Source: Hadesarchaea archaeon (GTDB lineage Archaea > Hadarchaeota > Hadarchaeia > Hadarchaeales > Hadarchaeaceae). Taken from it: a stretch of 13,279 nt of DNA. The notes beneath the pieces were generated by a model that saw only the letters and a program-made list of their open reading frames with translations, ran no database searches and was not told where the DNA came from. Of the stretch, positions 2,494 through 8,592 are shown one piece after another; the stretch's first letter is position 1; each line of letters begins with the position of its first letter. The stretch spans positions 1 to 13,279 of the forward strand of contig JAUXAS010000019.1 in NCBI GenBank assembly GCA_030619825.1, read 5' to 3'. Position numbers and translations under genes: made by a program.

Positions 2494-3450
2494 ATGGAAA
2501 TGCATGAAGTAACCCCTGAGGAGCGAAGGCGATTTTACTCTGAAGAATGGAACAAACGCGAGTTGCCCGATTTCATCCTTCACACCCTCTCCCTCCGTGA
2601 GTTCGGGTTCGATCTGGATGGCACAGGGCCAAGCCACCGGTACAATCAGTTCATGACCGTCGAGCAGCTGGCGGAGTATTTACAAAACAGGGCCCCCTAC
2701 TCGGCATTCACCAGCGTCGCACTTTACGAGCAGCCGTCGATGCGGAAGGGATGGATGAAATCCGAACTTGCATTTGACATCGACGCAAAGGACCTCCCCT
2801 TGAGGAGTTGCAGCTGTGCATCCGGGAGCGTTTGCGAACTATGCATCGATGAGGCCCGCCGAATCGCGATGGAGTTCGCTGAAACCATGGGCAAGGATCT
2901 GGGGTTGCACAACATTAACTTTGTATATTCCGGCCGCGGCTTCCACATCCGAGTGATCGACGACGCGATAATGACGCTGGAGCAGACCGAGCGGGCCCAA
3001 ATTGTTGAGTACATCACCGGTGGCGTGATCCCGACCGATGTCACGATGGCGCTCGGATATTCTCAGGTCTTTAGGGAGCGCCTCGCGCGGACCTTTGAGG
3101 GGATGGATGAGCAGCGGCTTTCGAAAATTCGTGGGTTACGAAGGTCCGTGATTCAAAAGCTAATGGTGGAGAAGGAGCGGGCTTTAGGGGCGATACGCAG
3201 TGGAAAATTGGACGAGCTTTCCGAGCTCGAAGGGATTGGCCCAAAAACCTTTCGGCAGCTTTTGGAATTTTTAGTTAGGCTGAACTCGGAATTCACCGAC
3301 GGAAAGGTCACGATTGACACAAAGCGCATCTTGCGTTTGCCATCGAGCCTGCACTCCGGTGTAAGCATGAAATGCATGCTTGTGCGAGATATCGGGCGTT
3401 TCAAATTAGAAGACGCAGTCCCGAAATTTGTACATGAGCGTGGACATTGA
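2494..3450 (+). CDS. priS: DNA primase catalytic small subunit PriS
   Basis: REFGFD, catalytic ELAFDIDAKD, Zn knuckle CSC..VCELC, YSGRGFH and DGKVTIDTKRILRLPSSLH. Confidence 0.97.
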   Translation: MEMHEVTPEERRRFYSEEWNKRELPDFILHTLSLREFGFDLDGTGPSHRYNQFMTVEQLAEYLQNRAPYSAFTSVALYEQPSMRKGWMKSELAFDIDAKDLPLRSCSCASGSVCELCIDEARRIAMEFAETMGKDLGLHNINFVYSGRGFHIRVIDDAIMTLEQTERAQIVEYITGGVIPTDVTMALGYSQVFRERLARTFEGMDEQRLSKIRGLRRSVIQKLMVEKERALGAIRSGKLDELSELEGIGPKTFRQLLEFLVRLNSEFTDGKVTIDTKRILRLPSSLHSGVSMKCMLVRDIGRFKLEDAVPKFVHERGH

Positions 3451-4051: not shown

Positions 4052-4330
4052 ATGATAATCCCAAAAAAACTCCGCACCTATTGCCCATCCTGTAGGAAGC
4101 ACACGAAGCACAGCGTTTCGCAGCTAAAAAAGCACTCCGCCCGCCCGTCAAGTTGGGGGCAGCGCCAGTTCGCCCGTGTCACGGCTGGTTATGGCAGCCA
4201 GCCGAGGTCCGAGCAGAAGAAATTTGCGAAGACATCGAAAAAAATCGTTCTGATGCTCAAGTGCAGCGTCTGCGGGAAGTCCCACCCCCACCGCGGTTTC
4301 AGGTCTAAGGGTGTGAAGTTCAAGGGGTAG
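4052..4330 (+). CDS. rpl44e: 50S ribosomal protein L44e (eL42)
   Basis: IPKKLRTYCPSCRKHT.H, GYGSQP and KTSKKIVLMLKCSVCGK. SD GGGAGTG. Confidence 0.97.
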   Translation: MIIPKKLRTYCPSCRKHTKHSVSQLKKHSARPSSWGQRQFARVTAGYGSQPRSEQKKFAKTSKKIVLMLKCSVCGKSHPHRGFRSKGVKFKG

Positions 4331-4338
4331 GTGAGTAA

Positions 4339-4518
4339 ATGGGAGGAAAACAGCGATCTAGATTTTTGAGGGTCAGGTGCAGCGATTGCGGGAGCGAACA
4401 GTCGGTGTATAGCCATGTTAGCTCCGTTGTCAGATGTAAGGTGTGTAGCAAGACGCTCGCGGTGCCCCATGGTGGGAAGGCGGAGATAAAGGCCACGATT
4501 CTCGAGGCGATGGAGTAG
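4339..4518 (+). CDS. rps27e: 30S ribosomal protein S27e (not in ORF track)
   Basis: Manual translation [59 protein letters not shown] (59 aa, C4 zinc finger). SD AGGTGA at 4329-4334. Conserved position after rpl44e. Confidence 0.96.
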
Positions 4519-4530
4519 GGAGGCGATCAG

Positions 4531-5316
4531 CTGGTAAGGCGCAAGTCGGAGTGGCCAACCATCGATGAGTTTGTCATGTGCACGGTAACGAAGGTCTTCG
4601 CCCAAGGCGCATTCATGACGCTCGATGAATACGGTGGGAAGGAGGGAATGGTCCACGTATCGGAAGTCGCTTCGGGCTGGATCAAAAACATTCGTGATTA
4701 CATTCGAGAAGGGCAAAAGGGGGTGTGTAAGGTTTTGGACGTAGATCCTAAACGAAAGCACGTCGATCTTTCGCTCCGCAGGGTCAAGGATAGCGAGCGT
4801 AGGTGGAAGGTGCAACAGTTGAAACGGGAGCAGAGAGCCGAAAAGCTCCTCGAGCTGGTGGCGGCCAAGTTCGAAAAGAGTCTTGACGAAGCCTATGATG
4901 AAGTAGGCTTTGCGTTGCAAGACAAATTTGGTGATATATACTCAGCGCTCGAGTCGGTTGTGAAGGACAAGAGCGTACTAGCTGACGTGGTTAAGGATCG
5001 GCGCTGGGTGGACGCACTCAGCGAGGTCGCGGCTTCCGCGATAAAGCCACCATCTTATAAGGTCGTTGGTCACCTCGATCTGAGTTGCACATCCTCCAAC
5101 GGCGTCGAGGTGATAAAATCAGCCATGATAGATGCCCGCGACTCCACGAAGGGAAACGAAGTCGACGTGGAGTTATATTACGTGGGCTCGCCGAGATATC
5201 GCATCGAGGTTACTGCCCCTTCCTACAAAGCGGCCGAGAATGCGATGCAGAAGGCAGTTGAGGAAGCCATCGCAGCCGTGGAGAAGGCGGGTGGGAAAGG
5301 GGAATTTCATAGGTAG
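4531..5316 (+). CDS. eif2a: Translation initiation factor aIF2 alpha subunit, probable CTG start
   Basis: S1 domain (GAFMTLDEY, VHVSEVASGWIKNIRD, HVDLSLRRV) and C-terminal YVGSPRYRI..APSYK. The conserved-looking N-terminus (L)VRRKSEWPTIDEFV lies upstream of the track start 4576 and begins at CTG 4531, 7 nt after SD GGGAGG (4518-4523). Confidence 0.95.
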   Translation: MVRRKSEWPTIDEFVMCTVTKVFAQGAFMTLDEYGGKEGMVHVSEVASGWIKNIRDYIREGQKGVCKVLDVDPKRKHVDLSLRRVKDSERRWKVQQLKREQRAEKLLELVAAKFEKSLDEAYDEVGFALQDKFGDIYSALESVVKDKSVLADVVKDRRWVDALSEVAASAIKPPSYKVVGHLDLSCTSSNGVEVIKSAMIDARDSTKGNEVDVELYYVGSPRYRIEVTAPSYKAAENAMQKAVEEAIAAVEKAGGKGEFHR

Positions 5317-5326
5317 GGTGTTGTGG

Positions 5327-5488
5327 ATGAAACTGAAAAAGTGCAAGTCGTGCGGGGCATACACACTTAAGGACGTGTGCCCAAGTTGTGGAGGGCAGGT
5401 GATCTCCCCTCACCCACCAAAATTCTCCCCGCTTGATCCGTACGGCAAATACCGGCGGATGTTGAAAAAGCAGGCAGGGGAAGTGTGA
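5327..5488 (+). CDS. nop10: H/ACA RNP protein Nop10
   Basis: MKLKKCKSCGAYTLKDVCPSCGGQVISPHPPKFSPLDPYGKYRR (53 aa). It is the C-terminal part of track ORF 5132..5488 and follows aIF2-alpha, as is usual. Confidence 0.95.
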   Translation: MKLKKCKSCGAYTLKDVCPSCGGQVISPHPPKFSPLDPYGKYRRMLKKQAGEV

Positions 5489-6252
5489 AGATGAAAAAGA
5501 CAACGGTTAACATCCTCTCGAAGCCCAAGCTCAAGGCGCCGGTTCTGATTGAGGGCTTGCCTGGCATGGGGTATGTTGGGAAGCTGGCGACGGATCACTT
5601 ACTGGAGGAGCTTCACGCCGAGAAATTCGCCGAGCTTCGTTCACCCCACTTTCCCCATCACGTCGTGGTCAAAGCGGATGGCACGCTGAGGCCGCTTAGG
5701 AACGAATTTTACTCTGCACGCACCGACGGCAGAGATGTTGTAATTTTGGTCGGAGATGTACAACCCGTTTCCCCGGAGGGACACTACGAGGTTGTCGAGA
5801 ACATCCTTGATGTTGCCGAGCAGTTTAAAGTGAAGCGGCTCTTCACCCTCGGCGGGTATGCGACGGGTAAGTATTCGAAGACGAAGCCGAGAGTTATGGG
5901 AGTGGGTGACCGTGCACTCTTGGAGGAGCTCCGCACGCGTGGCGTTACGGTGGAGAAGGGCGGAGGGCCGATAATCGGAGCCGCCGGCCTGCTGCTGGGG
6001 CTTGGAAGACTGCGCGGGATGCAGGGGGCATGTCTACTTGGTGAAACCCACGGGATGGTGGTCGATCACCGCGCAGCGCAGGCGGTACTGGAGGTGCTCC
6101 TTGGTGTGTTGGGCATCAAGGCCGATATGAGCGCCCTCGAACGCCGGGCGAAGGAAACGGAGCGCACGCTCGATCGGATTCGAAAGGAGATAGAGCTTCG
6201 CACGCGCAAGGAGCGGCGGCGCGAAGAGGAAGAAGCTTGGTACATCGGATAA
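5485..6252 (+). CDS. PAC2-family proteasome assembly chaperone homologue (Pba-type)
   Basis: LIEGLPGMGYVGKLA, GDVQP, TLGGY, IIGAAGLLLG, CLLGET and C-terminal WYIG. Conserved position after nop10. Start is GTG 5485 or ATG 5491. Confidence 0.92.
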   Translation: MKMKKTTVNILSKPKLKAPVLIEGLPGMGYVGKLATDHLLEELHAEKFAELRSPHFPHHVVVKADGTLRPLRNEFYSARTDGRDVVILVGDVQPVSPEGHYEVVENILDVAEQFKVKRLFTLGGYATGKYSKTKPRVMGVGDRALLEELRTRGVTVEKGGGPIIGAAGLLLGLGRLRGMQGACLLGETHGMVVDHRAAQAVLEVLLGVLGIKADMSALERRAKETERTLDRIRKEIELRTRKERRREEEEAWYIG

Positions 6253-7055: not shown

Positions 7056-7281
7056 TTTTCACCCCCCCACATTTTGCTAGCATATCTACATGCTCCATCG
7101 CTATTAAATATCTGCTATTTTCCCGATCTATTTTGGTAATTTTTAATCGATCAATCGTCATTTTTCAGCAATTCATTCCACATTTTTAGATCCAATTTTT
7201 AGAAAACTTTTTGGTCTATATCGGTTTAGTAGAACTTTGTATTAACACATGAGTACAAATCGAAAAATTAGAGGCTGGGGG

Positions 7282-8592
7282 ATGGCGAGGAATAAGAAAG
7301 TAAAGAGAAAGAAAAAGATAAGCAGGCGATTTAAAGTCGCATTAGTTAGCGTGGCGATTACAATAGGAATTGTGGTGCTATTTTTAGTGATAGATTTGGA
7401 TGGAGACGGGCTAAGTAACCTAGCGGAGCTTCAGCATAACACGGCGATGTTTGACTCAGACACAGACGGCGATGGGCTGAATGACGGGCCGGAAGTGAAT
7501 GTTCACAGAACAAATCCCTTGCTCGTTGATACTGATGAAGATGGTTTGAGCGATGAGTTGGAAATAAACATTCATAGGACAGATCCACTGGCTGTAGATA
7601 CAGATGGTGATGGGCTCGACGACGAATCTGAAGTGAACACTTACAAAACCAATCCATTGAACGTGGATATGGACAACGATAATTTGAGTGATTGGTCAGA
7701 AATAATCACTTATGGGAGCAACCCCTTGGATATAGACACGGATGGTGATGGAATTCACGATGGATTGGAGGTAAATGTCTACGAAACAAATCTTCTCGAT
7801 AACGACACCGACAACGATAGATTGCTTGATGGTCAAGAAGTAAATGGGTGGTTCATAACAGTAAATGGTCTAGCTTATCCTGTAACATCGAACGCATTTT
7901 CTAGAGATTCAGATGGGGACAATTTGAGCGATTGGTGCGAGTACACCACTTACCGCTCGGACCCAAAAAGCACGAACACTGACAATGATAGTCTGAGCGA
8001 TCTCTTGGAGATACTTTACGGGACAAATCTTGCCGAGGCATCGAGCGTTGCGCAACCACTCGAGAACGGCCCAGAGTATCCGCATCTGAATTTGGAAATA
8101 GATTACATGGTCGGTCACGCCCCATCATCCGAAGCGATAGGTTATTTCGAATCATATTTTGAGAACGATCTCGGCGTGGAAGTGGAGGTAATTTACGACG
8201 AGATAACTTCGAGCGAGCTAACGGCGGTTGGCGTTTCACTGGATTCGCTCAGCATTCTGGAATTAATTTCGATTGAACAGCACTTTCACGATAACCCCAC
8301 TACTCACCTCTACGTGTTTTACGCGAGGGCACTTGAGGAGAATGAAGCAGGGGGGCTGGCTTCGGGTTCTCACGGGGTAGCTTTGAACGGAGAATACATC
8401 TCAGCAAATATCGCGCGCGAGAGAACTGTTTTGCTTCACGAGGTGGGTCACGCACTTGGCTTGGAGCATTCTGATAACTCTCAATGTGTGATGCAATCGG
8501 GACCGATATTCTTAAACCCAATTTATTGTTACGATACGTGGGCGCAACGCAATCTCTTGGATATTTGGTCGGTGGATGAGCAATGGATTTAA
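7282..8592 (+). CDS. Membrane-anchored extracellular metzincin zinc metalloprotease with Ca-binding DxDxDG (TSP3-like) repeats
   Basis: Basic N-terminus and hydrophobic helix (VALVSVAITIGIVVLFLVI), nine DTDGDGL-type repeats, HEVGHALGLEH (HExxHxxGxxH, nt 8437-8469) and Met-turn CVMQ. Start is ATG 7282 (after GAGGCTGGGGG) or ATG 7249. Confidence 0.85.
   Translation: MARNKKVKRKKKISRRFKVALVSVAITIGIVVLFLVIDLDGDGLSNLAELQHNTAMFDSDTDGDGLNDGPEVNVHRTNPLLVDTDEDGLSDELEINIHRTDPLAVDTDGDGLDDESEVNTYKTNPLNVDMDNDNLSDWSEIITYGSNPLDIDTDGDGIHDGLEVNVYETNLLDNDTDNDRLLDGQEVNGWFITVNGLAYPVTSNAFSRDSDGDNLSDWCEYTTYRSDPKSTNTDNDSLSDLLEILYGTNLAEASSVAQPLENGPEYPHLNLEIDYMVGHAPSSEAIGYFESYFENDLGVEVEVIYDEITSSELTAVGVSLDSLSILELISIEQHFHDNPTTHLYVFYARALEENEAGGLASGSHGVALNGEYISANIARERTVLLHEVGHALGLEHSDNSQCVMQSGPIFLNPIYCYDTWAQRNLLDIWSVDEQWI
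7393..8028 (+). repeat. Nine degenerate tandem intragenic repeats of ~23 aa (~69 nt), consensus DTDxDGLxDxxEvxxyxTNPLxx
   Basis: Visible in the translation: DLDGDGL, DTDGDGL, DTDEDGL, DTDGDGL, DMDNDNL, DTDGDGI, DTDNDRL, DSDGDNL, NTDNDSL. Confidence 0.85.

Follow-up and report, generated by a model that had tools for sequence, protein, structure and literature searches.

A CTG start codon at aIF2-alpha in a Hadesarchaeon, probably a tolerated variant, and a family-wide CTG start at aIF1

Some initiation factors control their own synthesis through a weak start. Escherichia coli infC, which encodes IF3, begins with AUU and is under translational autocontrol (Butler 1987, cited in PMC4705826), and eukaryotic eIF1/SUI1 autoregulates through a poor start context (Ivanov 2010, described in PMC4705826). 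In Deinococcus, N-terminal proteomics placed the start of RpsL at CTG and that of DnaA at ATC (PMC2830850). The accessible text of archaeal reviews, PMC4705826 among them, lists only AUG, GUG and UUG starts, and PMC4705826 states the control role of archaeal non-AUG starts as an open question. A literature search that had most subscription journals outside its scope turned up no paper on CUG starts, or on autoregulation through the start codon, for either aIF1 or aIF2-alpha of archaea. The aIF2-alpha gene described here resembles infC as an initiation-factor gene with a near-cognate start, and Deinococcus rpsL as a core translation gene starting at CTG; the Deinococcus starts are bacterial and experimentally shown, whereas those reported here are archaeal and purely comparative. 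Unlike infC, it does not encode a fidelity factor, and its CTG lacks conservation.

The window, a stretch of 13,279 nucleotides from a Hadesarchaea archaeon (assembly GCA_030619825.1, contig JAUXAS010000019.1), contains an rpl44e–rps27e–aIF2alpha–nop10–PAC2 cluster defined by profile matches. The assembly of the source genome (G000) is 89% complete and yields one aIF2-alpha match, indicating a single copy. The best named relatives of this protein are from Hadesarchaea/Hadarchaeota metagenome-assembled genomes (MAGs; 79–95% identity). The features of the cluster are as follows.

4052..4330, forward strand: rpl44e, first gene of the cluster (NF004425, 104 bits against a cut-off of 87), with an ATG start called in G000 and one relative
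4339..4518, forward strand: rps27e (NF001629, 83.8 bits against a cut-off of 70)
4518..4528, forward strand: Shine-Dalgarno (SD) sequence (G)GGAGGCGATC, which overlaps the stop of rps27e
4531..4533, forward strand: CTG start codon of aIF2-alpha, opposite ATG, TTG or GTG in 55 of 61 readable genomes
4531..5316, forward strand: aIF2-alpha coding sequence, 261 residues (NF003064, 320 bits against a cut-off of 252)
4576..4578, forward strand: internal ATG of Met16, the pick of a caller limited to ATG, GTG and TTG
5327..5488, forward strand: nop10 (NF009623, 89.8 bits against a cut-off of 68)
5491..6252, forward strand: proteasome assembly chaperone (PAC2) family gene (TIGR00162, 259 bits against a cut-off of 200, scanned from 5485), with an ATG start at 5491 called in three genomes

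Elsewhere in the window, an AT-richer stretch at 7249–8592 encodes a protein of 447 residues that has a hydrophobic segment at its N-terminus, DxDGDG repeats rich in Asp and an HExxH motif at its C-terminus; it is probably a surface metalloprotease.

The rps27e stop, TAG at 4516–4518, is in frame with aIF2-alpha and lies 12 nt upstream of the CTG, making an in-frame start further upstream impossible. The sequence after it reads GGA GGC GAT CAG CTG GTA AGG CGC AAG TCG GAG TGG CCA. The first-pass annotation of the window had proposed a start at this CTG, had found no in-frame ATG, GTG or TTG between the stop and ATG 4576, and had pointed to an SD motif 7 nt before the CTG; all three hold. ATG 4576 is the first canonical codon after the TAG, 15 codons below the CTG, with the stop five codons above the CTG. 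The motif GGGAGG occupies 4518–4523, and the SD sequence matches the archaeal SD consensus at 9 of 10 positions. The SD duplex reaches −10.8 kcal/mol before CTG 4531, which places it in the top 7% by strength among 554 called starts, and only −2.2 kcal/mol before ATG 4576, both energies being based on an archaeal anti-SD consensus rather than on the 16S 3′ end of G000, which was not found in the assembly or the fetched loci. RNA structure prediction over 4490–4600 gave nothing notable (z +0.83), and a promoter scan with a sigma-70 type model found nothing useful.

Initiation at ATG 4576, yielding a protein 15 residues shorter, is highly improbable despite this being the first canonical codon. 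The matching codon is ATG in 32 of 61 genomes and in 11 of 12 genus members; in G003, however, it is ATA, and the next canonical codon lies 28 codons down. The profile NF003064 is matched from position 2 when the protein begins at the CTG (320 bits) and from position 14 when it begins at ATG 4576 (304.5 bits). Residues 2–257 of PDB 1yz6_A align to residues 3–257 of aIF2-alpha (E 8e-68), with the N-terminal S1 segment included and residues 3–15 paired with residues 2–14 of the structure, in agreement with the earlier view that a start at 4576 would cut into the S1 domain. Codons 2–15 are conserved, each of 11 relatives in the genus differing from G000 by 0–3 amino acids there.

A single base separates the CTG from the TTG of relatives, which speaks for a sequencing or assembly error, raised as a caveat in the first-pass annotation, or for an mRNA in which C-to-U editing restores UUG; we regard both as barely credible. 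Three of four contigs spanning the stretch (X1, X4 and X8) each carry one unplaced differing letter in 501, none of them listed at 4531. The fourth (X6, depth 43.9) is identical over 4300–4580, and G012 and G003 (95% and 90% protein identity) have CTG at the same position. Error is thereby excluded as far as contigs, used here rather than raw reads, and sister species show; any of the runs may be the source sample. Three RNA runs had 7–9% of words matched. We know of no mRNA editing in archaea, which counts against the editing variant. By this comparison, with the codon aligned to the starts of relatives, CTG 4531 is the real start of aIF2-alpha and not an error.

Across the phylum, aIF2-alpha was matched in 62 of 66 genomes and its start was readable in 61, a count that leaves out G004 (a fragment) and second copies. 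The aligned start is TTG in 23, ATG in 22 plus one with ATG one codon up, GTG in 10, CTG in 4 and ACG in 1. Among 42 readable genomes of the family, 16 have ATG and only 5 have a near-cognate codon; in the genus of G000 the 12 readable starts are TTG (8) and CTG (4), with ATG in none. G000, G012 and G003 form one clade among TTG relatives in a single-gene tree (support 0.986). The fourth CTG, in G002, has a TTG directly upstream and is ambiguous. The clade is young: fourfold-degenerate sites are 92–93% identical (109/117 and 103/112) and its length is 0.19 third-position changes per site, so that retention of the CTG requires no selection. Conservation of CTG at aIF2-alpha thus does not exceed neutral expectation (4 of 61 starts, in one young clade and the ambiguous G002). 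Read from this tree, the CTG is one recent TTG-to-CTG change in the ancestor of G000, G012 and G003.

Outside the phylum, 64 outgroup loci, mostly from Methanobrevibacter, gave ATG in 56, TTG in 2, a cut start in 4 and no canonical start nearby in 2. One of the last two, from a Desulfurococcales MAG (G066), has CTG at L130:1501-1503, three codons below a stop; it is the sole CTG among 30 loci of that group, in which ATG (13) and TTG (11) lead. In G044 (L360) an ACG occupies the start position without an upstream canonical codon; contamination in this genome is 8%, and its second aIF2-alpha copy is outside the count. Near-cognate aIF2-alpha starts therefore arose up to four times, in the G000 clade, in G002 (ambiguous), in G044 and in G066. 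From a rough rate based on four events, a single gene with a TTG start is expected to undergo about 0.16 TTG-to-CTG changes across the genus tree, giving P = 0.15 for at least one and, if G002 counts, P = 0.012 for two or more.

To place the codon in its genomic background, starts were called from comparisons of G000 to G001 (0.90 Mb) and G002 (1.19 Mb). The 758 ortholog sets gave 554 called starts: 347 ATG, 105 GTG, 94 TTG and 8 CTG. Two of the CTG calls were dropped, having an ATG 2–3 codons down, which leaves 6 of 554. With this score-based caller, control codons drew 0–9 calls in G000 against 8 for CTG, so raw counts cannot separate CTG from noise, and the estimate that about 1% of G000 genes start with CTG relies on hand inspection. 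A call at window position 3447 (TTG/TTG/CTG) was also dropped, its next codon being ATG, and a strict filter for forced non-canonical starts was uninformative because it dropped both positive controls, aIF2-alpha and aIF1. A blind test took 121 starts that are TTG in two genomes and read the codon of the third, which was CTG at 4 of them: the genes for SepF, an enzyme of homocysteine synthesis, a protein with a PUA domain and one without a name. Six further non-canonical codons each turned up a single time, always next to a canonical start one codon off. CTG also begins the genes for RibB, an ATP-synthase c-type subunit and a class III aminotransferase.

Of 73 starts that are TTG in G001, 2 are CTG in G000, compared with 63 of 384 internal TTG/CTG leucine codons; 68 of the 73 remain TTG. 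Median SD strength rises from ATG (−6.3 kcal/mol) through GTG (−8.1) and TTG (−8.3) to CTG (−10.7). The rarity of the swap at starts and the strong SDs at CTG fit mild purifying selection with SD compensation. Belinky, Rogozin and Koonin (2017; PMC5622118) likewise describe start-codon switches and SD compensation, with weaker starts paired with stronger SDs in prokaryotes and weak selection on start codons. Their UUG-to-CUG count is 1 in 2,468 versus 4 in 121 here, at differing distances, and their set may be based on annotated starts that miss CUG.

Several other unusual starts were seen. CTG starts are common to G000, G001 and G002 at the class III aminotransferase (G000:C70:5700, minus strand) and the ATP-synthase c-type subunit (G000:C9:7365, plus strand), and to G000 and G001 at an unnamed 202-codon protein (G000:C29:73, plus strand). 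A possible ACG start, with a good SD and no canonical codon nearby, occurs at the V-type ATPase I subunit of G002; this gene starts with ATG in G000 and G001 (G001 copy, L332:7471-9609). At G000:C64:34631 (minus strand) an ATC preceded by GGGTGAT is conserved across three genomes; no canonical codon lies close to it, and it may be a start.

Among the initiation factors of G000, aIF2-gamma starts with GTG, aIF1A, aIF5B and aIF6 with ATG, and aIF1 and aIF2-alpha with CTG (2 of 6). A gene for aIF2-beta was not found in the 89% complete G000 assembly; it starts with ATG in G012 and G003. The second CTG gene is as follows.

G000:C93:9361 (L194:1474-1782), minus strand: aIF1/SUI1 gene with a CTG start

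It lies in an rpl29–aIF1–RNase P–rps17 run; GGAGGTG precedes its CTG, and the stop of rpl29, in the same frame, ends 3 nt before it. The first canonical codon below the CTG comes 9 codons later and falls within the N-terminal zinc-knuckle motif, a motif carried by 64% of archaeal aIF1 according to PMC6237735, whose 744-sequence aIF1 table may bear on start annotation. An aIF1 match was found in 65 of 66 genomes, with the start readable in 64. In the family (n = 45, kin not independent) the start is CTG in 34, GTG in 3, ATG two codons up in 5, only ATA or ATC in 2 and unclear in 1; outside it, ATG is found in 19 of 19. The CTG genes span 10 genera. None of the 34 has an in-frame ATG, GTG or TTG upstream before the stop, which lies 1–2 codons up in 32. 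As a control, the invariant Leu10 of the same 34 genes is encoded by CTG 12, TTG 11, CTA 5, CTC 3, CTT 2 and TTA 1, and fourfold-site identity of aIF1 to other genera is 25–59%. At aIF1, then, a weak start lacks a canonical alternative and is conserved beyond neutral expectation.

The CTG is absent from the aIF1 genes of G032, G033, G034, G037 and G057 (L382, L383, L384, L387 and L407), in which an in-frame ATG two codons up overlaps a TGA, probably the rpl29 stop; this looks like a one-base loss restoring an AUG start. In G036 and G050 only ATA or ATC is present in the start region.

In Sulfolobus, aIF1 rejects AUU (PMC4705826). A surplus of the factor could therefore reduce initiation at the CUG of its own gene, rejection having been shown for AUU only. 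From the comparative pattern, we consider it somewhat more probable than its converse that the aIF1 CUG serves as a negative-feedback element limiting synthesis of the factor, and we infer here the comparative signature of infC and eIF1. Like infC, the aIF1 gene encodes a fidelity factor and has a weak start that is conserved; unlike infC, it begins with CUG, its product bears no relation to IF3 and the feedback is putative. As the homolog of eIF1, aIF1 would gain the same negative loop from a weak start, although eIF1 uses an AUG in poor Kozak context and aIF1 a CUG that follows an SD and sits 3 nt past the stop of rpl29.

The first-pass annotation had suggested such a start-codon switch for aIF2-alpha itself, by analogy to infC and eIF1 (PMC4705826). 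The real CTG behind a strong SD speaks for that reading, in which a surplus of aIF2 would reduce initiation at the aIF2-alpha CUG; we nevertheless judge it very unlikely. The start is labile over 61 genomes, with CTG confined to a young clade and the ambiguous G002, and more ternary complex would be expected to aid rather than hamper a weak start. PMC4705826 assigns AUU rejection to aIF1 and does not, in its accessible text, show it for aIF2-alpha. The factor brings tRNA and is dispensable in Haloferax, where its overproduction leaves growth rate unchanged (PMC8576121); it gives no clear negative loop and does not fit the eIF1 precedent. The idea of initiation-factor feedback through start codons is thus unsupported for aIF2-alpha and fits aIF1. 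The CTG is common to three sister species, and the nearest relatives have TTG. Genome-wide, CTG starts are scarce and occur at two initiation factors, and TTG/CTG swaps also affect unrelated genes.

Could the CUG instead have been selected to put aIF2-alpha under the stringency of aIF1, which would then tune both itself and the tRNA carrier? The coincidence of CTG at both genes in G000, G012 and G003, the up to four near-cognate origins at aIF2-alpha, the lack of ATG in all 12 readable genus members and AUU rejection by aIF1 (PMC4705826) speak for it. Yet 16 of the 42 readable family genomes have ATG at aIF2-alpha and only 5 rely on a near-cognate codon; most TTG starts stay in any case (68/73), the remaining CTG genes are unrelated to translation, and aIF2-gamma, aIF1A, aIF5B and aIF6 start with GTG or ATG. 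We find this selected cross-regulation unlikely.

We hold instead that the CUG start of aIF2-alpha, a real one, is most likely a tolerated passenger and not a dedicated autoregulatory switch. Counting against this are the up to four near-cognate origins, the low number of expected swaps, the genus without ATG (12 of 12) and the share of CTG among the G000 initiation factors. One T-to-C transition would have converted the ancestral TTG to CTG in the common ancestor of the three sister species. Initiator tRNA would pair with positions 2 and 3 of the CUG, with a mismatch at the first position and the strong SD holding the complex, and ribosomes that re-initiate after terminating at the rps27e stop, 12 nt before the CUG, may contribute; in Haloferax, re-initiation at 13–14 nt spacing keeps 40–60% efficiency (PMC10666635). 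The result would be a weak-start variant, probably slightly deleterious and tolerated in a lineage rich in TTG starts, with aIF2-alpha at most a passive target of the stringency set by aIF1. In G000, ARAGORN reports two intron-containing tRNA-Met(CAT) genes.

By itself the aIF2-alpha CUG is a modest finding. In these archaea, gene callers limited to ATG, GTG and TTG will truncate both aIF1 and aIF2-alpha. The CUG that aIF1 has across the family offers a direct test of the control role of non-AUG starts, with natural controls in the ATG genes outside the family and the ATG and GTG variants within it, and with the aIF2-alpha CUG as a matched passenger. It is conceivable, if doubtful, that archaea have at aIF1 a start-codon feedback loop, a third version beside those of infC and eIF1, together with a set of CUG genes that follows the level of aIF1. 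That set would include aIF2-alpha, the ATP-synthase c-type subunit and the class III aminotransferase and, if this is true, tRNA delivery would be linked to proofreading.
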